Below, piece after piece: positions 3,956-64,000 of a stretch of DNA of 64,000 bases; positions within the stretch are counted from its first letter, which is position 1, and every line of letters starts with the position of its first letter. Where the stretch lies: the sequence record PZ386948.1. One strand, given 5' to 3'. Source of the DNA: a phage. The position numbers and the translations under genes are program-made. Under the pieces are notes generated by a model. That model ran no database searches. It had not been told where the DNA came from and saw only the letters and a program-made list of their open reading frames with translations.

Positions 3956-4370
3956 TTAATATCCTCTTTGTTTTGGTTTATTTTACCAAAAATTTATAAA
4001 GCAATATAGGAGCCGAAGCTCCTATCCACATAATACGCCATACAGAGACTCGTTAGAACTTTTAAATTTTATGCGCTTATATGTTATAGTTCCTTCTGCT
4101 TTAGCTTTATCATGAGACTCTTTAAAGCGTCTCATCATTTCCTCTTTAGAGGAACGAATTTTATTATAATCTATTTCAGAAGTCTGGATGTTCATCTTTC
4201 ACAGTTGCCACCATTTTTTGACTTGATAAGAATCAACCCACACTTTCATATTAGGGTCTGCTCTTACAATAGGAGGATTAACTTCTTTAATTGAACTATC
4301 ATGGTATTCTTTTTCAGAAATTTTCACACAAAGATGACCATTCAAAGATTCAGTAAATCCTGCATTAATT

Positions 4371-4688
4371 TTAAGACGCTTGAATTTTACGTGTGTAAGC
4401 ATCAATCATATCCTCAATTTGCGATCTAGTAGTCTTCCAAAGAATACTGATGAGTTCATCGTTATATGGCTGTTTTAGAATATCCCGACTTTTCTTGATA
4501 GCATATTCGTATTGAGCAAAATTATTGTTTTCAGCTGCGATCTGAGCGTGCTTATAAAGACGATTCAGTTCGCGTTTGTTTTTAGACAATAACTTATTTG
4601 CTTTTCTTTCTGCTTCAAGACGGTTCTTTTCTTCAATAGAAGAAATAAGCTTTTCCACTTCATCATTAATTTCGGGTTTATCAGTCAT
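4371..4688 (-). CDS. Hypothetical protein (coiled-coil, charged)
   Basis: 105-aa ORF in the minus-strand early gene run. Confidence 0.5.
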   Translation of the reverse strand: MTDKPEINDEVEKLISSIEEKNRLEAERKANKLLSKNKRELNRLYKHAQIAAENNNFAQYEYAIKKSRDILKQPYNDELISILWKTTRSQIEDMIDAYTRKIQAS

Positions 4689-11401: not shown

Positions 11402-11722
11402 TTATAGCGTAATCCATTCTCGTACTGTCTGAGTTACTACACGTTCATGGGGCTCGACTAGTTCAACAGTCGGAACTGCATAATACCAGTCAGAATGATA
11501 AGAACCTGACCGAGATTCATTTACCGCTACATGTACATTATGTTTTGGACTAAAGTAAACAAACTGACGATATTGGCATTTACCATCTTGCACCCAGTCT
11601 TCTATTTCGATAGGTTTAAGATAGTCGGAAAAATCGAAATCATAGTTTTCCGAAAATGCATCATGGTCTTCAATGATTTCGCTCAGAACTGCATCAACAT
11701 CTAATTTATTTTCAATAGTCAT
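11402..11722 (-). CDS. Hypothetical protein
   Basis: 106-aa ORF. Confidence 0.5.
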   Translation of the reverse strand: MTIENKLDVDAVLSEIIEDHDAFSENYDFDFSDYLKPIEIEDWVQDGKCQYRQFVYFSPKHNVHVAVNESRSGSYHSDWYYAVPTVELVEPHERVVTQTVREWITL

Positions 11723-11732
11723 TTTTCACCAA

Positions 11733-11903
11733 TTAATTTCGCAATTTATTAAGTTCTTCATAATCAATCCAGGATTCTAATCCTGATGGCAAATCACATT
11801 CAATTTCCCAAAGAAGTTCTTCAATTTTATGAAGACGATCTAGTTCTTCAGCAGGAATAGTAACCATTGACGGAGCTCTTGCTACATTAATATCGTAAAT
11901 CAT
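11733..11903 (-). CDS. Hypothetical small protein
   Basis: ATG at 11903 (MIYDINV...); track ORF begins earlier. Confidence 0.4.
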   Translation of the reverse strand: MIYDINVARAPSMVTIPAEELDRLHKIEELLWEIECDLPSGLESWIDYEELNKLRN

Positions 11904-11905
11904 AT

Positions 11906-12121
11906 TTACACCAGTTTGACCATACAATCGCCGTATTTCCACTTAGAAATAGACTTTTCACCATTAGAATAATAAACTTCAAGTTTAGCACGATTATTTT
12001 TAATTTGAATAACCTTTGCTGTCATCAAAGTTCCATACCCATAATAAACTGCAACTTCATCACCTACATATACAGCGCTTCCGCGGTAATCGTGAATATA
12101 GTCAGTTCCTTCGAGCATCAT
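11906..12121 (-). CDS. Hypothetical protein
   Basis: 71-aa ORF. Confidence 0.5.
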   Translation of the reverse strand: MMLEGTDYIHDYRGSAVYVGDEVAVYYGYGTLMTAKVIQIKNNRAKLEVYYSNGEKSISKWKYGDCMVKLV

Positions 12122-12381
12122 TTAAAATATTCTCGCAGTTGGTCAAATCCACCAATATGACTTCCATCAGGAGCAAATACCTGAGGCATTGTCAAGCCGA
12201 TTTGAGTATCACGACCTAGTTTAGTCAGAAGCTCAGCGATTTTCTCATCATCAAAAACACCTTTTTCCGGCATAATGTTGATAAATTCAAACGGCTGTTT
12301 CTTCACGGTCAAAAGACGTTTTGCATTATCGCAATACACACATTTATGAATGTTGCTATCATAACCATATACTTTAAACAT
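12118..12381 (-). CDS. nrdC: Thioredoxin/glutaredoxin
   Basis: 87 aa; CVYC redox motif; MFKVYGYDSNIHKCVYCDNAKRLL... Confidence 0.9.
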   Translation of the reverse strand: MFKVYGYDSNIHKCVYCDNAKRLLTVKKQPFEFINIMPEKGVFDDEKIAELLTKLGRDTQIGLTMPQVFAPDGSHIGGFDQLREYFK

Positions 12382-12382
12382 A

Positions 12383-12625
12383 TTATTCCTTAATTCCTAG
12401 TACTTGTTTAAAAGTCTCGTCGTAATCAAGACTTTGGCCCGTTTGTTCTTTATGTTTGTATATAATATCACTTACTTCTGATAGCATATTTTTATATGAA
12501 CGAGTTAAAGCAGATTTAAGCACGCTGTATCTATCAGGAAATTTACCATGTTCATTATAATAAGCTATTGCTAATTCATGGACTGCCTTTTCAGCAGCCT
12601 CCATATATTCTTTACGCTTGGTCAT
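12383..12625 (-). CDS. Hypothetical protein
   Basis: 80-aa ORF. Confidence 0.5.
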
Positions 12626-12627
12626 TT

Positions 12628-13017
12628 TTAATCCAAAATATTATTAGGCATTGGTTGAACACTCACAAGTTCTTTAAAGAACTCAGTAGAGTCAGGCAAT
12701 TTAACCATTTCCGGAGCATGCTTACTGAATTTATGTTTACATTGACGGCATTTATATTCAAGCTCTGGTTTACGCCAGTTAATCAATTGAACTTGTTCAG
12801 TACCGCATTCAGGGCAATTAGGAACGTTTTTAGAAGCTCTTTCACGTCGTTCAACCATAGCCATAATAGCATCCCATGCTGGAGGTTTAAAATCTAAATC
12901 GTCGCAGCCGTGAATCTTTCCACGCATTTCCATATCATCTTCCTCACCAGCCATAATAATTTTAATTAGACTAGAATTACTTGAAGCTGCAATATCTTCT
13001 AATAAACGCTTTTTCAT
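12628..13017 (-). CDS. Hypothetical protein with Zn-ribbon-like CxxC...CxxC
   Basis: 129 aa; CPECGTEQ...CRQCKHKF. Confidence 0.5.
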
Positions 13018-24103: not shown

Positions 24104-24316
24104 TCATTTTTGTCCTGTATTTACTTTATGCCGATGCACGGCCTTAACTTTATCAAGGTATTTTTCAAAATTTCGCAATCTAGTATAGTCTGCCGGAGAT
24201 TGGTTGAGTGATACTTCTCGACGCAAAGCTGAAATGATATTTCCAACTTCCCTACGAATTTCATCTAATTGAAGAACAGTAAGATTGCGAAGTTGCTTTT
24301 CAGTTAATTGTAGCAT
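24104..24316 (-). CDS. Hypothetical protein
   Basis: 70-aa ORF. Confidence 0.45.
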
Positions 24317-24358
24317 ATATACCCCTTTAGTTAGATAAACCTATTTATAACTTTTGCA

Positions 24359-24940
24359 CTAACCGAGCTTTTTAGTTAATTCATTCCAATGTTTTCTACA
24401 CAAAGAAACATAAATTTCATCACCAATACAGATTTGATTACCTTCTTTAACTGGTGTTCCATCTTCCATTAATCGAGCTGTCATAATAGCTTTTTTACCA
24501 CAATGACAAACTGCCTTTAGTTCAATAAGTTTATCTGCAATCGCCAAAAGTTCTTTAGAACCTTCAAATAATTTTCCAGCGAAATCAGTCCTTAGCCCAT
24601 AAGCCATAACAGGAACATTATATGTATCAACAATTCGACTTAATTGATGCACCTGTTTAGTTTTTAAAAACTGAGCTTCATCTACAAATACACAATGAAT
24701 ATCTTTTTGTGCTTCAGCCCATTTATAGAACTCAAAAATATCCATATCATCCGTAATAATATTCGCTTCCTGCTTAATTCCAATGCGAGAAACGACTTCA
24801 CAGACAGAATCACGAGTATCAATAGCAGGCTTAAGAACTAATACACCCATTCCGCGTTCTTTATAATTATGTGCAGCAGTCAAAAGAGAAGCAGATTTTC
24901 CAGCATTCATTGCTGCGTAAGTAAAAATTAAACTCGCCAT
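24359..24940 (-). CDS. tk: Thymidine kinase
   Basis: 193 aa; P-loop MNAGKS, C-terminal Zn-binding CHCGKKA...C; classic TK1-type. Confidence 0.92.
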   Translation of the reverse strand: MASLIFTYAAMNAGKSASLLTAAHNYKERGMGVLVLKPAIDTRDSVCEVVSRIGIKQEANIITDDMDIFEFYKWAEAQKDIHCVFVDEAQFLKTKQVHQLSRIVDTYNVPVMAYGLRTDFAGKLFEGSKELLAIADKLIELKAVCHCGKKAIMTARLMEDGTPVKEGNQICIGDEIYVSLCRKHWNELTKKLG

Positions 24941-24949
24941 ATCACCTTC

Positions 24950-25135
24950 TTAAAGCGTATTCACATAAGCTATTAATTCGTTTTCTTTCTTATCAAACCG
25001 ATCAGCAAATTCTTCTTGCTGATCGGGAGATAGCGGGCCGTATTCATCATAAAAGGTGTTTGCTTCTGTATGCTCATCTAGAAGTTCATGGATAAGCTCA
25101 AACAATTTATCTTTTTGTTCTTTACTCAGACTCAT
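24950..25135 (-). CDS. Hypothetical acidic protein
   Basis: 61-aa ORF. Confidence 0.45.
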   Translation of the reverse strand: MSLSKEQKDKLFELIHELLDEHTEANTFYDEYGPLSPDQQEEFADRFDKKENELIAYVNTL

Positions 25136-25301
25136 ATATTAATTTCCAGGAGTTTTAAAATAATTCGCTTTTGCTTAAATATTTCCATAGTTAAATGACC
25201 AGTATCTTTTTGACCGATTCCAATGGCAAAACCTTTATTGACAGCGAGTTCAATTAAATTATCAAGCTCACGTAACACTTCATATTGTAACTCAAAACTA
25301 T

Positions 25302-25529
25302 TCATTTCGGTTTACCTTCTTTAACGAAATCAGGATAAGGATAAAATCCTGAATAAAATCCTTCACCTTTATGATTGATGCATCCTTTATTAGAACAATA
25401 GCACCAATAATCGAAATCACAAGCCATTTCATCATTACATAAAGCAAAAACAACTGGCCATTCACACTTTTCGCAGTGGGCATTTTTAAGAATACTGGTT
25501 TGGCTCATAACCATGTAACCTTTAAACAA
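25302..25529 (-). CDS. Cysteine-rich small protein (possible Zn-binding)
   Basis: 75 aa containing 9 Cys/His-rich positions (CEKCEW...CDFDYWCYCSNKGCINH). Confidence 0.45.
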   Translation of the reverse strand: MFKGYMVMSQTSILKNAHCEKCEWPVVFALCNDEMACDFDYWCYCSNKGCINHKGEGFYSGFYPYPDFVKEGKPK

Positions 25530-25717
25530 TATTCTTCTACATGTTGTTTACGACCTTTCCTATCAATAAAGGTATATTCAACGAATGTTCCAATATAGTC
25601 TTTATCTACATCATGTGGACTATTAATTGGGCATTTAGTACGGCAAATGCGTTCCCATTGACGAATAATTTCCACTTTGTTTTTAGGATCAAACGGATGC
25701 GGGTAATGTACTTTCAT
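25505..25717 (-). CDS. Hypothetical protein
   Basis: 70-aa ORF. Confidence 0.45.
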   Translation of the reverse strand: MKVHYPHPFDPKNKVEIIRQWERICRTKCPINSPHDVDKDYIGTFVEYTFIDRKGRKQHVEEYCLKVTWL

Positions 25718-26168
25718 AATCCACCACTATTAAATCAATATCAGGAGTAAACATGTCGATTAATTTAGAAACCTTATCCCAATCGCCGCCAGCAATACCG
25801 CAACCTATGCGTGGAATGTAAATTACTGGTTTAAACAAAAGGGTTTCTGCCTGTAGATTTAATTCTATCATGCAGTTTACTAAAGCACCATAATCAAGAT
25901 TAGGACCCGGTTCGTATTGTGTATACAGGTTATAGCATATACCAAATCCCGTAGGACTATGTTTAAAAACAATAGACATATCGCCTAATTTATCACGAGA
26001 ACCGTACTCGGTAGTGGTTTTATCTATTTCTAAAATTTTGGGATAGGCTCTTGCTAATTGACCCGCTACGCCAGAGCCCATTGTGTGGAAGCAATTGCAC
26101 CCGTGCGCAATAATATTACCTTGAAGAAATAGGGCGACAATATCGCCCTTGATATATTTTACAATCAT
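25689..26168 (-). CDS. Macro-domain protein (putative ADP-ribose binding/hydrolase)
   Basis: 159 aa; GDIV...GNIIAHGCNC..MGSGVAGQLA...IPRIGCGIAGGDW, typical macrodomain motifs. Confidence 0.65.
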   Translation of the reverse strand: MIVKYIKGDIVALFLQGNIIAHGCNCFHTMGSGVAGQLARAYPKILEIDKTTTEYGSRDKLGDMSIVFKHSPTGFGICYNLYTQYEPGPNLDYGALVNCMIELNLQAETLLFKPVIYIPRIGCGIAGGDWDKVSKLIDMFTPDIDLIVVDYESTLPASV

Positions 26169-26506
26169 CTAGTACTCAATCCTCGATTATAAGAATCTAC
26201 TAAACGGTCAACCATTGAATGACAAGCGGCTTTATCTTTCTCCTCCGCAACTGAACATTCTAAAGTATTCCACTTTTTAGCATATCGTTTTAACAATGTA
26301 TCATTTTTATATCTGCTTGATTTATCTCTTTCTCCGTCTTTATATGCATATATTAATTTCTGCGCAAATTCAGCTTGGCATGCTTTATTTTTCCCACAAT
26401 AATCCGCGGCAGTACGGTTTACATACTCTCTAATTTCAGTATATGATGTATCTGCTAACGCAGAAAATGAAATTAATCCTATACATAAAACCAAAATTTT
26501 AGTCAT
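26165..26506 (-). CDS. Secreted small protein (signal peptide, conserved Cys)
   Basis: 113 aa; MTKILVLCIGLISFSALA signal peptide. Confidence 0.5.
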   Translation of the reverse strand: MTKILVLCIGLISFSALADTSYTEIREYVNRTAADYCGKNKACQAEFAQKLIYAYKDGERDKSSRYKNDTLLKRYAKKWNTLECSVAEEKDKAACHSMVDRLVDSYNRGLSTR

Positions 26507-27044
26507 TTACTATTTCCAAAAGTTTATTATTTTTAAGGTAATTAGCCTTTTCTAGGACTTCAGAAGCATATTTAGAACCAGCTTTAACATTCCATCCCGA
26601 ATTATAAGAGGATATTGCTTTTCTTATATCGCCCTTATGTATATTTAACCAATAAGAAAGTTCAATGTACGCCCAGGAAGCTGAATTGGATCGTTTATTC
26701 AACATTCTTTTTATTTCAGCATCGGTCATATTATAACCAAGTTCCTTAACTCTTGCTCGCATAGTAGGCAAATAATTTTGGAACATTCCATAAGCGTGAT
26801 GCTTTGGTTTAGATTTTAAATTAACTCCGCCAGAGCTTTCTTGCCATAAAATAGCAGCCATTATATGACCTAATCCGCTCTTGTGGATATTTTTGTGTGT
26901 TTTATATTTTCCATCCTTAGAAAATTGTTCCCCGAATTGATACGCGTAACGCATGTTATCGAGTTGGACATTACTGAAAGTATGCTCGGAGCTATGTGCC
27001 ATCATTGAAATGGCCAATAGACCAGCGAGTAGTGCTTTTCTCAT
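26499..27044 (-). CDS. Secreted lytic-transglycosylase-like (SLT domain) protein
   Basis: 181 aa; signal peptide plus ILWQESSG catalytic-Glu motif. Confidence 0.55.
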   Translation of the reverse strand: MRKALLAGLLAISMMAHSSEHTFSNVQLDNMRYAYQFGEQFSKDGKYKTHKNIHKSGLGHIMAAILWQESSGGVNLKSKPKHHAYGMFQNYLPTMRARVKELGYNMTDAEIKRMLNKRSNSASWAYIELSYWLNIHKGDIRKAISSYNSGWNVKAGSKYASEVLEKANYLKNNKLLEIVND

Positions 27045-27051
27045 GCTTACC

Positions 27052-27513
27052 TCATTGAGTTTTAATTACTGCTTTAGAAGCCTTTCCTGGTAAACGACGA
27101 CTGTTAATAATTGCCATCCTACATTGAAGTGACGGGTCTTTGAACTTCGCATTAGGTTTACAAACTGTAAATCCAAGCCAAAGATTTCCATCTGTGATTT
27201 CTAAACGTCCAGGACGGTATTCAACCCCATCAATAAAATCCTCGTCAATGTCAGGACGCGGAGGCATACTCAGGAATTCATTAACTTCTAAAACATGGTC
27301 TTTTATTTTGTGGAATAATTCAAAAACATATGTCTCATCAATCTCCCGTTGAATTGCACGATCAAGAAGATGCTGAGAATATTTTAGATGAAACGATGAG
27401 ACCCCTGCTGCTTTTGATGCCTCACGAATCTCATTGTTAATTTGACGAAACTCCGACTCAAAGTGACGACGAAGCTTATTTCGACGGATAAAAACTTCTG
27501 TGTTGATAGTCAT
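27052..27513 (-). CDS. regB: RegB-like endoribonuclease
   Basis: 153 aa at the T4 regB position with its own early promoter; assignment from memory of size/position. Confidence 0.6.
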   Translation of the reverse strand: MTINTEVFIRRNKLRRHFESEFRQINNEIREASKAAGVSSFHLKYSQHLLDRAIQREIDETYVFELFHKIKDHVLEVNEFLSMPPRPDIDEDFIDGVEYRPGRLEITDGNLWLGFTVCKPNAKFKDPSLQCRMAIINSRRLPGKASKAVIKTQ

Positions 27514-27538
27514 GTTATTCTCCTCTTAACTGATAGAA

Positions 27539-27572
27539 AAATTATACCACAGTCAAGAGGAAAAGTAAACAG
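27539..27572 (-). promoter_or_regulatory. T4-type early promoter
   Basis: GTTTAC (27565-27570), 18-bp spacer, TATAAT (27541-27546). Confidence 0.65.
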
Positions 27573-27851
27573 TTATTCTTTAAATCTAATCAATTTATTC
27601 ATAGACTTTGAAACTTCTGCACGGACCTCATGAAGGTTTTTGAGCTGTTCAAGACGTTGCTCATAGTAAGCAATTTCATCTTCTTCAAGACAGTCCTGTG
27701 AATCTTCTTTAAGATAACGTGCATAGTCCTGAAAAGCTTTACGGACTACTTCCTGGAAGTCATCAAGACTTTGAATTTTCTTAGGAGCAGCAGACACACG
27801 ACGAGGGGCAGTATAATACTCATAACCAAACCCTGCGCTTAATTGAGCCAT
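27573..27851 (-). CDS. Hypothetical protein
   Basis: ATG at 27851 overlapping the upstream stop (TAATG). Confidence 0.45.
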
Positions 27852-28117
27852 TAGTATTTTTCCTCTGGTTGGAACACAGCACGACAAGCCCACATACTGG
27901 CTTCTTTGAGTTTCGTTTTAGCAATAGCTAAATGATCGAGGCTTTCAGCGTAATTCTTCGCGAGTTCAAAGTCTTCGCAATTATCTAGTGCTTCCCAGAA
28001 TTCATCATATAAAGCATCAAAGATAAGTCCTAAACGAACTTCAGCGTCTTTAATAGCATTTACTTTACCGATTTTTTCGTCGGTATGTGGCTTATAACCT
28101 TTAATATCTTCAATCAT
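27851..28117 (-). CDS. Hypothetical protein
   Basis: ATG at 28117 with GAGGAAG RBS. Confidence 0.45.
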
Positions 28118-28331
28118 ATTTGACTTCCTCACCAGTACATAAATCGTATTCAACTAAACGAATAGGTTCATGAATGCCATATCCTTGAACAGAAATTTCT
28201 GTCGTAGGATAAATTCCATTAATATCACCCATGTTCCATGCTTCGTTAAATTGCTGTTCGCCTGAATTACTAAACCACTCGGCGAAAGCATTTAGCACAT
28301 CTTCAGAACCTTCAATAATTATCTTTGCCAT
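28110..28331 (-). CDS. Hypothetical acidic protein
   Basis: 73-aa ORF; start overlaps the GrcA-like stop. Confidence 0.45.
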   Translation of the reverse strand: MAKIIIEGSEDVLNAFAEWFSNSGEQQFNEAWNMGDINGIYPTTEISVQGYGIHEPIRLVEYDLCTGEEVKYD

Positions 28332-56041: not shown

Positions 56042-57621
56042 GTAATAATACATATCAACACGTTTCTAATGAATCTCGTTATGTAAAATTTGATCCAACT
56101 GGTACAAATTTTCCGGAAGAGATTACTGATGTTCAGGCTGCTATAGCAGCCATTTCTCCTGCTGGCGTAAATGGAGTTCCTGATGCATCGTCAACAACAA
56201 AGGGAATTTTATTTCTTGCCACTGAACAGGAAGTTATAGATGGAACTAATAATACCAAAGCAGTTACACCAGCAACGTTGGCAACAAGATTATCATATCC
56301 AAATGCTACCGAAGAAGTTTATGGACTTACACGTTATTCAACAGACGATGAAGCTGTAGCTGGTGTTAATAATGAATCATCTATAACTCCGGCTAAATTT
56401 ACTACAGCAATTAATCACATTTTTGATACACGAATTTCTTCTGAAAGTTCACTTGGCGTTATTAAGTTATCATCTCTACCGCAAGCATTAGCTGGTGCAG
56501 ATGATACTACTGCAATGACTCCATTAAAAACGCAGCAGTTAGCTATTAAATTAATTGCGCAAATTGCTCCTTCTGAAACCACAGCTACCGAATCGGACCA
56601 AGGTGTTGTTCAATTAGCAACAGTAGCGCAGGTTCGTCAGGGAACTTTAAGAGAAGGCTATGCAATTTCTCCTTATACGTTTATGAATTCATCTGCTACT
56701 GAAGAATATAAAGGCGTAATTAAATTAGGAACACAATCAGAAGTTAACTCGAATAATGCTTCTGTTGCTGTTACTGGTGCAACTCTTAATGGTCGTGGTT
56801 CTACAACGTCAATGAGAGGCGTAGTTAAATTAACTACAACTGCCGGCTCACAGAGTGGAGGTGATGCTTCATCAGCACTAGCTTGGAATGCTGACGTTAT
56901 CCATCAAAGAGGCGGTCAAACTATTAATGGAACACTCCGCATTAATAACACGCTTACAATAGCTTCAGGTGGAGCAAATATTACCGGAACAGTTAACATG
57001 ACCGGTGGTTATATTCAAGGTAAGCGTGTCGTAACACAAAATGAAATTGATAGAACTATTCCTGTCGGAGCTATTATGATGTGGGCCGCTGATAGTCTTC
57101 CTAGTGATGCTTGGCGTTTTTGTCATGGCGGAACTGTTTCAGCATCAGATTGTCCATTATATGCTTCTAGAATTGGAACAAGATACGGCGGAAGTTCATC
57201 AAATCCTGGATTACCTGATATGCGCGGTCTTTTTGTTCGCGGCTCTGGTCGCGGCTCTCACTTAACAAATCCAAATGTTAATGGTAATGACCAGTTTGGT
57301 AAGCCTAGATTAGGTGTAGGTTGTACTGGTGGATATGTTGGTGAAGTACAGAAACAACAGATGTCTTATCATAAACATGCTGGCGGATTTGGTGAGCATG
57401 ATGATTCTGGAGCATTCGGTAATACCCGTAGATCAAATTTTGTTGGTACACGTAAAGGACTTGACTGGGATAACCGTTCATACTTCACCAATGACGGATA
57501 TGAAATTGACCCGGCATCACAACGAAATTCCAAATATACATTAAATCGTCCTGAATTAATTGGAAATGAAACACGTCCATGGAACATTTCTTTAAACTAC
57601 ATAATTAAGGTAAAAGAATGA
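56038..57621 (+). CDS. 12: Short tail fibre protein gp12
   Basis: 527 aa; Gly/Ser/Thr-rich fibre repeats. Confidence 0.9.
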
Positions 57622-57630
57622 GGATTACAA

Positions 57631-59088
57631 ATGATTGAATTAAAAGAGTTACCTTTTGTTGATAGCGTTCCTGACGAAGGTCAGGAACGTATTTCATGGA
57701 TTAAAAATGGTGAAGAAATATTAGGAGCTAGTACTAAGTATGGAAATGATGGATCAATGAATAGACCAATTGTTTCCGTGTTTAAAAACGTCGAAGTTCT
57801 TGATGAAAATGTGGGAATTCTTAAAACTGCCATTGAAACATCACAGAAAGATATTAAAACAATTCAAGGAGTTTTAGATGTATCAGGAGATATAGAAGCA
57901 CTATCGCAGATCAGTGTTAATAAAAATGACATATCGAATTTAAAGACACTTACCAGTGAACACACTGATATATTAACTGGAACTAATAATACAGTTGACA
58001 AAATTATTGCTGATATAGGTCCATTTAATGATGAAGAAAACTCTGTTTATAGAACAATTAGAAATGATTTATTGTGGATTAAACAGGAATTAGGACAATA
58101 TTCTGGCCAAGACATTAACGGTCTTCCTGTTGTTGGTAATGCTAGCACAGGAATGAAACACAGAATAATAACAAATAGTACATTATTATCTTCACAGGGC
58201 ATTCGTTTAAGCGAATTAGAAAATAAATTTACTGAATCTGACGTAGGATCATTAACTGTTGAAGTTGGTAAATTACGTGATGAACTTGGTAATAAACCAG
58301 TAGATTTTGGGCCAAATATTTATAATAGATTAAACACCATAGATGATAAACAAACTTTAATAATTTCTGATATAGCAGAAATTAAATCTTCTATTGGATA
58401 CCCAGAAAATGTTTCTATAATAACAGAAATTAATAATAACAAAAGTAGCATTGAAGCTATTAATAATGAATTAAATCAGAGTGAAGGTGTTAAACAGCGC
58501 TTAACGGCTATTGAAACTTCTATAGGTTCAGATGATATTCCTTCTAGTATTAAAGGAAAAATTAAAAATCACACAACTTCTATTGAGTCTTTAAACGGAA
58601 TTGTTGGTGAAAACACTTCGTCTGGTTTAAGAGCGAATGTTTCGTGGTTAAATCAAATTGTTGGAACTGACTCCAGCGGAGGACAACCGTCTCCTTCTGG
58701 ATCTCTATTAAATAAAGTTTCAGTGCTTGAAGGAGAAGTTTCAGTTTTAAACAATAATGTTCAAAATATACAAGTTGAAATAGGAAATAATAGAACAGGA
58801 ATTAAAGGTCAAGTTATTGAACTTACTTCACTTATAAATGGAAATAATCCTGACGGATCAACTGTTGAAGAACGAGGATTAACTAATTCTATAAAAACGA
58901 ATGAAACCAACATTGCGGCAGTCACACATGAAGTAAATACAGCTAAAGACAATATATCCTCTTTACAGAGCAGCGTTCAAGCTCTACAAGAAGCAGGTTA
59001 TATTCCTGAAGCTCCAAAAGATGGCCAAGCTTACGTTCGTAAAGACGGCGAATGGGTACTACTTTCTACCTTTTTATCACCAGCATAA
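57631..59088 (+). CDS. wac: Fibritin (whisker antigen control)
   Basis: 485 aa; long coiled-coil repeats; C-terminal foldon-like [27 protein letters not shown]. Confidence 0.95.
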
Positions 59089-59091
59089 CAT

Positions 59092-59107
59092 GGGGCCGCA
59101 AGGCCCC
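59092..59107 (+). terminator. GC hairpin after wac (ggggcc-gcaa-ggcccc), weak terminator or stabiliser
   Basis: Perfect 6-bp stem with GNRA-type loop; no immediate U-run. Confidence 0.35.
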
Positions 59108-59119
59108 AAAGGATTTTAA

Positions 59120-60822
<1,703 letters not shown>

Positions 60823-60863
60823 TAAATATTATAAACTAATTAAAGCCCAGATTAGGAGAAATC

Positions 60864-64000
<3,137 letters not shown>

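Follow-up and report, generated by a model that had tools for sequence, protein, structure and literature searches.

Shigella phage CM8 tk.4 encodes a glutamine-type macrodomain orthologous to the T4 anti-DarTG2 factor AdfM

Introduction

What does a small macrodomain protein do for a T4-like phage, and from which substrate might it remove ADP-ribose? The question is raised by a gene of Shigella phage CM8, a T4-like Tequatrovirus, which lies in a stretch of 64,000 nucleotides (nt) from sequence record PZ386948.1, in the following called the window. The open reading frame (ORF), here named tk.4, encodes 159 amino acids (aa) from an ATG start. A sequence-only reading had recognized a macrodomain in it and suggested that the protein could reverse a host defence based on DarT-type ADP-ribosylation or tune the phage's own ADP-ribosylation of host proteins. 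The ORF listing returned the gene at the same place and on the minus strand, which had been left unstated, and its translation (MIVKYIKGDIVALFLQGNIIAHGCNCFHTMGSGVAGQLARAYP...IYIPRIGCGIAGGDWDKV...) contains all of the quoted motifs (GDI, here as part of KGDIVALF, GNIIAHGCNC, GSGVAGQLA and IPRIGCGIAGG).

25689..26168, minus strand: coding sequence of a 159-aa macrodomain protein, ortholog of T4 tk.4/adfM, corresponding to KMC31_gp107

Between positions 25000 and 27000 the window is 100% identical to the genome of CM8 (NC_054939.1, genus Tequatrovirus), and as a whole it represents about 32109-96108 of that record. The ORF is the RefSeq coding sequence KMC31_gp107 (YP_010075916.1), which is annotated as 'phosphatase'. 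The evidence presented below suggests that its product is probably a small, single-domain and catalytically competent macrodomain, which as the CM8 allele of T4 Tk.4/AdfM would serve the phage as a counter-defence enzyme.

Tk.4 is an ALC1-like macrodomain

The Pfam profile PF01661 (Macro) matches CM8 Tk.4 with an E value of 1.3e-7 and 32 bits (gathering cutoff 22) over profile positions 2-117 of 118, and PHROG 335 matches with an E value of 1e-71. A phmmer search against the PDB sequences revealed macrodomains exclusively, which were BT1257 (2FG1/2AFC, 4e-10), Poa1p (6LFU, 1.6e-9), SCO6735 (5E3B, 8.5e-8), Mycobacterium tuberculosis DarG (5M3I, 4.9e-5) and TARG1 (0.01). The profile-profile comparison of the Tk.4 family with TARG1, DarG and PhiKZ gp104 by hhalign gave a probability of 99.4%.

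An alignment of 105 family members, on which all conservation figures in this paper are based, was also used for an AlphaFold2 model of the CM8 protein (predicted local distance difference test score, pLDDT, 94.3; predicted template modelling score, pTM, 0.89). The model displays the three-layer alpha/beta/alpha fold of macrodomains, and Foldseek ranked TARG1, Poa1p, BT1257 and DarG best among the PDB structures. Both glycine-rich loops that bind ADP-ribose and its diphosphate are present (MGSGVAG, residues 30-36, and PRIGCGIAGG, residues 119-128), as is the Asn in front of the first loop (N25). These elements are kept in the 105 homologs and align with their counterparts in TARG1, DarG and SCO6735. 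CM8 Tk.4 is therefore a member of the Macro superfamily, as the sequence-only reading had stated, and due to the Pfam, PHROG and PDB sequence matches, the model and the Foldseek ranks it belongs to the ALC1-like class (TARG1/DarG/SCO6735).

Among the defence-system models of PADLOC the sole match is DarG (E value 5e-7, positions 3-144 of 329). The best NCBIfam match is likewise antitoxin DarG, with the macrodomain part alone, 27.7 bits against a cutoff of 250, at positions 2-142 of 338. Some sources label such proteins as 'RNase III regulator / O-acetyl-ADP-ribose deacetylase' of the MacroD/YmdB type. This assignment is not supported, as the NCBIfam deacetylase models reach 15.7 bits against a cutoff of 291, and neither a match to an equivalog model nor a MacroD-type fold preference was found.

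Orthology to T4 tk.4 and the anti-DarTG2 phenotype

The gene order in CM8 is rI, rI.1, tk, small ORFs, tk.3, tk.4, vs, vs.1 (with an SLT domain) and regB, which is that of the T4 tk-vs-regB region. The slot between vs and tk.3 is common to CM8, T4 and the T2-type phage SV76, in which the corresponding gene is labelled tk.4 as well. T4 Tk.4 (NP_049723), whose RefSeq entry notes that it 'contains A1pp phosphatase motif', aligns with the CM8 protein over 155 aa without gaps (58% identity, 74% positives, E value 1e-70). The two proteins (159 and 155 aa) are thus collinear, they occupy the same place in locally 95-100% identical genomes, and they share H22, N25, C26, D49, N80, Y82, Q84, P119 and W130. 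The CM8 gene belongs to the orthologous group of T4 Tk.4/AdfM.

For the T4 member of that group a phenotype is known. In a HIDEN-SEQ transposon screen of T4 on a host expressing DarTG2, tk.4 was the single significant hit; a clean deletion of the gene rendered T4 sensitive to DarTG2, and its authors introduced the new name adfM, for anti-DarT factor Macrodomain (preprint, 10.1101/2025.11.20.689424). They describe AdfM as structurally similar to DarG. Another factor had been expected, since T4 lacking adfA and adfN is still resistant to DarTG2 (PMC11825919). The suggested reversal of DarT-type DNA ADP-ribosylation has thus been demonstrated genetically for the syntenic T4 gene. The phenotype is known for the T4 allele alone, and we infer activity and mechanism of the CM8 allele from orthology and residue conservation.

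The active site is of the glutamine type

The following stretches of the gene encode the conserved motifs, as defined by the alignments and by conservation in the 105 homologs.

26091..26105, minus strand: codons H22-G23-C24-N25-C26 (HGCNC)
26061..26081, minus strand: codons M30-G36 (MGSGVAG), first glycine-rich ADP-ribose-binding loop (GxG)
25917..25931, minus strand: codons N80-L81-Y82-T83-Q84, with Gln84 at the position of the catalytic Lys
25779..25814, minus strand: codons P119-W130 (PRIGCGIAGGDW), second (phosphate-binding) loop, which reads PRIGAGIGKGNW in the T4 allele

Invariant in all homologs are H22, G23, N25, C26, G33, A35, D49, N80, Y82, Q84, P119 and W130, while T83, I121, G122, G124, A126, G127 and G128 are conserved in at least 90% of them. 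For the comparison with characterized macrodomains we used a TARG1 sequence identical to the PDB chains, the translation of the PhiKZ gp104 construct printed in PMC13309987, and reference sequences from literature and PDB alignments for BT1257, SCO6735 and the DarG macrodomains of Thermus aquaticus and M. tuberculosis. N25 aligns with Asn22 of DarG, Asn27 of SCO6735 and Asn23 of the PhiKZ protein. In the MAFFT alignment H22 corresponds to His24 of SCO6735, and the two glycines G31 and G33 are present in all of CM8, T4, BT1257, SCO6735, TARG1, both DarG macrodomains and gp104. G23 aligns with Val25 of SCO6735, the backbone of which holds the proposed catalytic water, and G122/G124 are equivalent to G126/G128 of that protein.

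The decisive column is that of Gln84, where TARG1 (K84), DarG (K80) and gp104 (in its FPTK motif) carry the catalytic Lys and SCO6735 carries Gln85. According to both hmmsearch and MAFFT the column reads TQ in CM8 and T4, GQ in BT1257 and SCO6735, and TK in TARG1, both DarGs and gp104; hhalign pairs NLYTQY of the phage family with YLITKK of TARG1 at the probability given above. In the profile-profile alignment A126 stands where TARG1 has its catalytic Asp125. The catalytic Lys and Asp residues of TARG1 and DarG are therefore absent from CM8 Tk.4. The sequence-only reading had named a lack of catalytic residues as grounds for giving up the macrodomain claim. The replacement of the TARG1/DarG Lys and of TARG1 Asp125 by Gln84 and Ala126 is real, but the claim itself stands, because this combination of residues marks the active SCO6735/BT1257 subtype, for which the Gln is essential (PMC9411070).

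SCO6735 is the best studied protein of that subtype (PMC9411070). It cleaves thymidine-linked ADP-ribose from DNA, with a processivity which its authors rate higher than that of DarG or TARG1, and it protects cells from DarT. Gln85 takes the place of the Lys and its exchange to Ala or Glu (Q85A, Q85E) abolishes activity, N27S is nearly inactive, and G128E lowers the activity. The authors propose a water-mediated mechanism via the backbone carbonyl of Val25. Likewise, the exchange N23A reduces the activity of PhiKZ gp104 (PMC13309987). The CM8 equivalents of the SCO6735 residues that matter (G23, N25, Q84, G122 and G124) are all present and conserved. Judged by these alignments, CM8 Tk.4 is closest to the Gln-type subclass of SCO6735 and BT1257, with which it shares the active-site residues and not the long mobile loop.

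SCO6735 also gives rise to an alternative that we regard as very improbable, namely that Tk.4 neutralizes DarT2 chiefly by binding the toxin, as a stoichiometric inhibitor, or by sequestering ligands that contain ADP-ribose, and not by catalysis. The inactive Q85A variant of SCO6735 still strongly inhibits DarT by interaction, more than DarG or TARG1 do (PMC9411070), and the allele replacement described below, which is confined to tk.4, would fit co-evolution with a protein partner. Yet the catalytic residues of SCO6735 are without exception invariant in the 105 homologs, which argues for selection on enzymatic activity, and with its 159 aa CM8 Tk.4 lacks the C-terminal DarT-binding domain of DarG, of which only the macrodomain part of the NCBIfam model is matched.

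Proposed mechanism

SCO6735, DarG, TARG1 and PhiKZ AdfM all remove the ADP-ribose that DarT2 attaches to DNA (PMC9411070, PMC13309987). On this background we propose that CM8 Tk.4 acts as an orphan, 'antitoxin'-like ADP-ribosylglycohydrolase. DarT2 of a host DarTG2 system would ADP-ribosylate the N3 of thymidine in TNTC motifs of single-stranded phage DNA and thereby block replication. Tk.4, expressed presumably from the early regB-vs-tk transcription unit, would grip the ADP-ribose through MGSGVAG and PRIGCGIAGG and hydrolyse the N-glycosidic bond between thymine and ribose, so that ADP-ribose is freed, the DNA is restored and replication can proceed. The chemistry is probably of the SCO6735 type and not of the DarG type, there being no Lys nucleophile. 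Gln84, held by Asn25, would position the distal ribose, and a water held by the backbone may start the reaction as proton donor.

Several observations weigh against this proposal. In the searched literature we found no study that assayed T4 or CM8 Tk.4 biochemically; for T4 there is genetic evidence, taken from a preprint. Between CM8 Tk.4 and the tested T4 protein 42% of the positions are different, those of the phosphate loop (IGCGIAGG versus IGAGIGKG) among them. The mobile loop after the Gln is five to six residues shorter in the phage family than in BT1257 and SCO6735, and has the length seen in TARG1 and DarG. In SCO6735 this loop, which is described as a characteristic of the subclass, is about five residues longer than in DarG/TARG1, and its Lys89 contributes to the activity on DNA (PMC9411070). 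Protein and RNA carrying ADP-ribosylated uracil (U-ADPr RNA) are further substrates of SCO6735 and TARG1 (PMC9411070, PMC13036486), so that DNA may not be the sole substrate of Tk.4. Finally, yeast Poa1p, which is an ADP-ribose-1''-phosphate phosphatase, is just as close to Tk.4 in the H-x-C-N-C motif and in the fold, and a small-molecule substrate is therefore possible.

Soluble ADP-ribose derivatives as possible substrates

The closeness to Poa1p leads to the alternative that the substrate is a soluble derivative of ADP-ribose. Tk.4 would then be an ADP-ribose-1''-phosphate phosphatase like Poa1p or an O-acetyl-ADP-ribose deacetylase, and it would serve the clean-up of NAD and ADP-ribose or destroy a defence signal instead of repairing DNA. 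The RefSeq annotation of the T4 and CM8 genes ('phosphatase; contains A1pp phosphatase motif') points in that direction, and some records are named 'Poa1p-like family protein'. His22 of the HGCNC motif matches His23 of Poa1p (HSCNC; numbered by us after the PDB chain), a residue which is mutated in PDB 6lfs. Poa1p (PDB 6LFQ-6LFU), with known substrates that are small molecules, has a similar fold but is about 20 residues longer and contains insertions. According to a proposal by Iyer et al. (PMC9503650), soluble ADP-ribose derivatives may be what the Macro and NADAR domains of phages prefer. Such a function, however, leaves the DarTG2-specific sensitivity of the T4 tk.4 deletion unexplained, and the low scores of the NCBIfam deacetylase models speak against a deacetylase. 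To our knowledge RNA repair in T4 (Pnkp/Rnl) does not produce ADP-ribose-1''-phosphate, which also counts against it. We consider a soluble substrate unlikely.

ADP-ribose writers and erasers of CM8

The ADP-ribosyltransferases that the sequence-only reading had expected elsewhere in the phage are found in the CM8 annotation, outside the window, as two mod-type and two Alt-like genes. Two genes for an 'RNA polymerase ADP-ribosylase' lie at 11526-12748 of NC_054939.1, the position of ModA/ModB, and two tandem genes for an 'Alt-like RNA polymerase ADP-ribosyltransferase' at 120325-124479. A homolog of gp30.3 is encoded at 127282-127740 of the same record, again outside the window; T4 gene 30.3 encodes the NADAR anti-DarT1 factor AdfN. 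With the mod and Alt genes, Tk.4 and the gp30.3 homolog, CM8 carries writers of ADP-ribose as well as two classes of erasers.

Since CM8 possesses ModA/ModB-like and two Alt-like enzymes, Tk.4 could be thought to reverse or tune the marks set by the phage itself through Alt, ModA and ModB, for example to reset Arg265 of the RNA polymerase alpha subunit or to remove RNAylation. As far as we know, the targets of ALC1-like macrodomains are Glu/Asp esters and the N3 of thymine and uracil and not Arg, for which reason this class has no known activity that would fit. Alt and Mod modify arginine (PMC8120803), and the suggested tuning of the phage's own ADP-ribosylation therefore finds no support. Protein-linked ADP-ribose is hydrolysed by SCO6735 and TARG1 as well (PMC9411070), and the reference list of PMC13036486 names an arginine-specific macrodomain, MavL. 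On the other hand, tk.4 is not linked to alt and mod, from which it lies about 45 kb and about 62 kb away, and the phenotype in the T4 screen is specific for DarTG2 (10.1101/2025.11.20.689424). Homologs occur in many phages of other genera, for example of Klebsiella, Pseudomonas and Vibrio, a comparison that covers Tk.4 alone. A role in resetting the phage's own marks thus seems hardly credible.

RNA as a possible substrate

A further alternative is that the main targets are ADP-ribosylated RNA bases, for instance at the N3 of uracil, or the products of other ADP-ribosyltransferases of host defence, so that the activity against DarT2 would be only part of what a de-ADP-ribosylase with a wider range of nucleic-acid substrates does. 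U-ADPr RNA is robustly hydrolysed by SCO6735 and TARG1 (PMC13036486), and tk.4 is located among RNA-related early genes, namely regB, encoding an endoribonuclease, and vs, encoding a modifier of valyl-tRNA synthetase. Neighbourhood in the early region of T4-like phages is, however, a weak guide to function, and the literature examined provided no bacterial defence that makes U-ADPr RNA. CmdT modifies adenine (PMC13036486) and CmdTAC defends robustly against T-even phages (PMC11618068), which implies that Tk.4 does not counter CmdTAC. By analogy with SCO6735 and TARG1, a broader de-ADP-ribosylation of nucleic acids including U-ADPr RNA is plausible as an additional activity of Tk.4; that RNA is the main target appears doubtful, with a chance about as small as that of a soluble substrate.

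Comparison with other macrodomains

Our preferred assignment of CM8 Tk.4 to the counter-defence enzymes places it beside several proteins from which it differs in defined ways. From T4 Tk.4/AdfM it is set apart by differences that are concentrated past residue 45, by a phosphate loop which in CM8 is the family consensus, and by a C-terminal extension of four residues, with which the CM8 gene overlaps the tk.3 homolog (DUF7202) by 29 nt. SCO6735 from Streptomyces coelicolor (PDB 5E3B) and BT1257 from Bacteroides (2FG1/2AFC) share about 26% identity with CM8 Tk.4. They are chromosomal and not viral, and SCO6735 has Asp28 and Gly84 in place of Cys26 and Thr83.

Human TARG1/OARD1 (PDB 4J5S) is the top Foldseek match (E value 8e-10, template modelling score about 0.72-0.8). 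It has the PRIGCG motif and the loop length after the catalytic position in common with CM8 Tk.4, whereas its Lys84/Asp125 dyad is replaced by Gln84/Ala126. The DarG antitoxins of DarTG2 systems (T. aquaticus 5M31/5M3E, M. tuberculosis 5M3I) differ by catalytic Lys80 in place of Gln84. Membership of CM8 Tk.4 in DarG was rejected, as the protein has neither the catalytic Lys (K80 in T. aquaticus, FPTK) nor the C-terminal DarT-binding domain, and its gene is flanked by vs and tk.3 and not by darT.

The name AdfM was also given to gp104 of the chimallivirus PhiKZ (Cell Reports 2026, PMC13309987), which strips the ADP-ribose made by DarT2 from a TNTC oligonucleotide in vitro, removes it in vivo too, and rescues DarT2 toxicity. 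Like CM8 Tk.4 it is a single-domain phage macrodomain with the conserved Asn; it counters DarTG2, as is proposed for CM8 Tk.4. But gp104 is of the DarG type, with the FPTK lysine and an E value of 9e-25 to M. tuberculosis DarG, against 5e-5 for CM8 Tk.4. An assignment of CM8 Tk.4 to the PhiKZ-type AdfM was rejected due to the different subtype and a pairwise E value of 0.001 over 23 residues. Because gp104 is DarG-like and almost unrelated in sequence to CM8 Tk.4, the name AdfM appears to cover two independent recruitments of different macrodomain subtypes, represented by T4 Tk.4 and PhiKZ gp104.

Replacement of the tk.4 allele

CM8 and T4 were compared by MAFFT in sliding windows of 60 nt, using positions 57000-63000 of T4 (NC_000866).

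25691..26152: divergent allelic cassette, DNA identity to T4 47-82% per 60-nt window

The genes vs, vs.1, regB, tk.3, tk and rI are 95-100% identical to T4 on the DNA level, and since the body of tk.4 between these flanks reaches only 47-82%, CM8 tk.4 is a swapped, alternative allele at the tk.4 locus. With 90% identity as the lower limit, 313 records of the phage database have a protein of the CM8 type and 224 have one of the T4 type, while a third type, 80-90% identical to T4, is present in 159. In total, homologs of Tk.4 could be detected in 2,790 of 50,697 phage records, including phages of Klebsiella, Salmonella, Pseudomonas, Vibrio, Acinetobacter and Aeromonas, and this number fits a widely useful counter-defence gene. 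A bacterial homolog from Pelagimonas is an orphan gene without a DarT neighbour and gives no direct clue to the origin.

It is tempting, though rather improbable in all its parts taken together, to see Tk.4 as a phage-specific, short-loop, Gln-type lineage within the ALC1-like class, whose recruitment against DarT2 was independent of that of PhiKZ AdfM, a DarG-like protein of the Lys type. The bounded swaps would then reflect an arms race, with alleles tuned to different DarT2 variants, for example by direct binding of the toxin as in SCO6735, or to extra substrates such as U-ADPr RNA.

Translation signals and neighbouring genes

26165..26189, minus strand: translation-initiation region of tk.4, TAATCGAGGATTGAGTACTAG followed by ATGA on the minus strand (from the sequence and the ORF coordinates)
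26131..26149, minus strand: perfect 8-bp GC-rich hairpin AGGGCGATATTGTCGCCCT in tk.4 codons 7-13, beginning 17 nt past the start codon
27569..27541, minus strand: strong sigma-70-like promoter TTTACT-17-TATAAT with extended -10 TG, directly upstream of regB (27052-27513)
26499-27044, minus strand: vs.1 homolog of 181 aa with an N-terminal signal-like sequence and an SLT lytic transglycosylase domain (PF01464, 25 bits, cutoff 21.3)
24950-25135: DUF7438 ORF
25132-25305: 57-aa ORF without a Pfam match at E values up to 0.01
25302-25529: Cys-rich ORF with a 'Phage zinc binding domain' (PF23895)

The ATG of tk.4 (26168..26166) overlaps the TGA stop of vs (26167..26165) as ATGA, which suggests translational coupling of the two genes, and a Shine-Dalgarno-like GAGGA is located at 26184..26180, 11 nt 5' of the start. 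The hairpin is nucleotide-identical in T4 (4353-4371 of the T4 comparison segment), while over the rest of the gene the DNA identity is about 50-80%. Its role could be that of an mRNA structure acting on translation or stability, or of a recombination boundary.

A scan of 24300-28300 for sigma-70 promoters gave 10 sites against 15.7 expected and thus no enrichment. The sole site that looks meaningful is the one upstream of regB, which is probably the early promoter of the regB-vs.1-vs-tk.4 unit. In T2, tk.4 mRNA was identified by RIL-seq as a partner of the host small RNA ArcZ, and Tk.4 was found in the proteome of infected cells (bioRxiv 10.64898/2026.06.19.733364). The same preprint labels tk.4 as 'putative thymidine kinase', which is a mis-annotation. 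RefSeq lists the vs.1 homolog as hypothetical only and adds a note, 'RegB', that is misleading.

Another replacement with respect to T4 concerns 24919-25510 of the window, the tk.1/tk.2 region, where the DNA identity collapses and many gaps appear. CM8 carries the DUF7438 ORF, the 57-aa ORF and the Cys-rich ORF at this place, and T4 has tk.1 and tk.2.

Significance

The macrodomain nature of Tk.4 was already apparent from the 'A1pp phosphatase motif' in T4 RefSeq, the role against DarTG2 was reported in 2025 and the Gln-type chemistry of SCO6735 in 2022. CM8 tk.4 is thus an ordinary phage macrodomain gene of wide distribution, which had been annotated before, and the finding is correct and in substance known. 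The modest additions are that AdfM of the T4 type is Gln-type and not DarG-type, that it is missing the mobile-loop insertion of SCO6735, and that its allele has been replaced within sharp bounds among nearly identical Tequatroviruses. As AdfM of the T4 type carries Gln and not Lys, mutational and inhibitor work should be modelled on SCO6735. CM8, like T4, has a layered anti-DarT set, consisting of Tk.4/AdfM, which would act against the thymidine-modifying DarT2, and of the homolog of gp30.3, in T4 AdfN, against the guanosine-modifying DarT1. Such layered genes bear on the prediction of host range for phages on E. coli and Shigella strains that carry DarTG.

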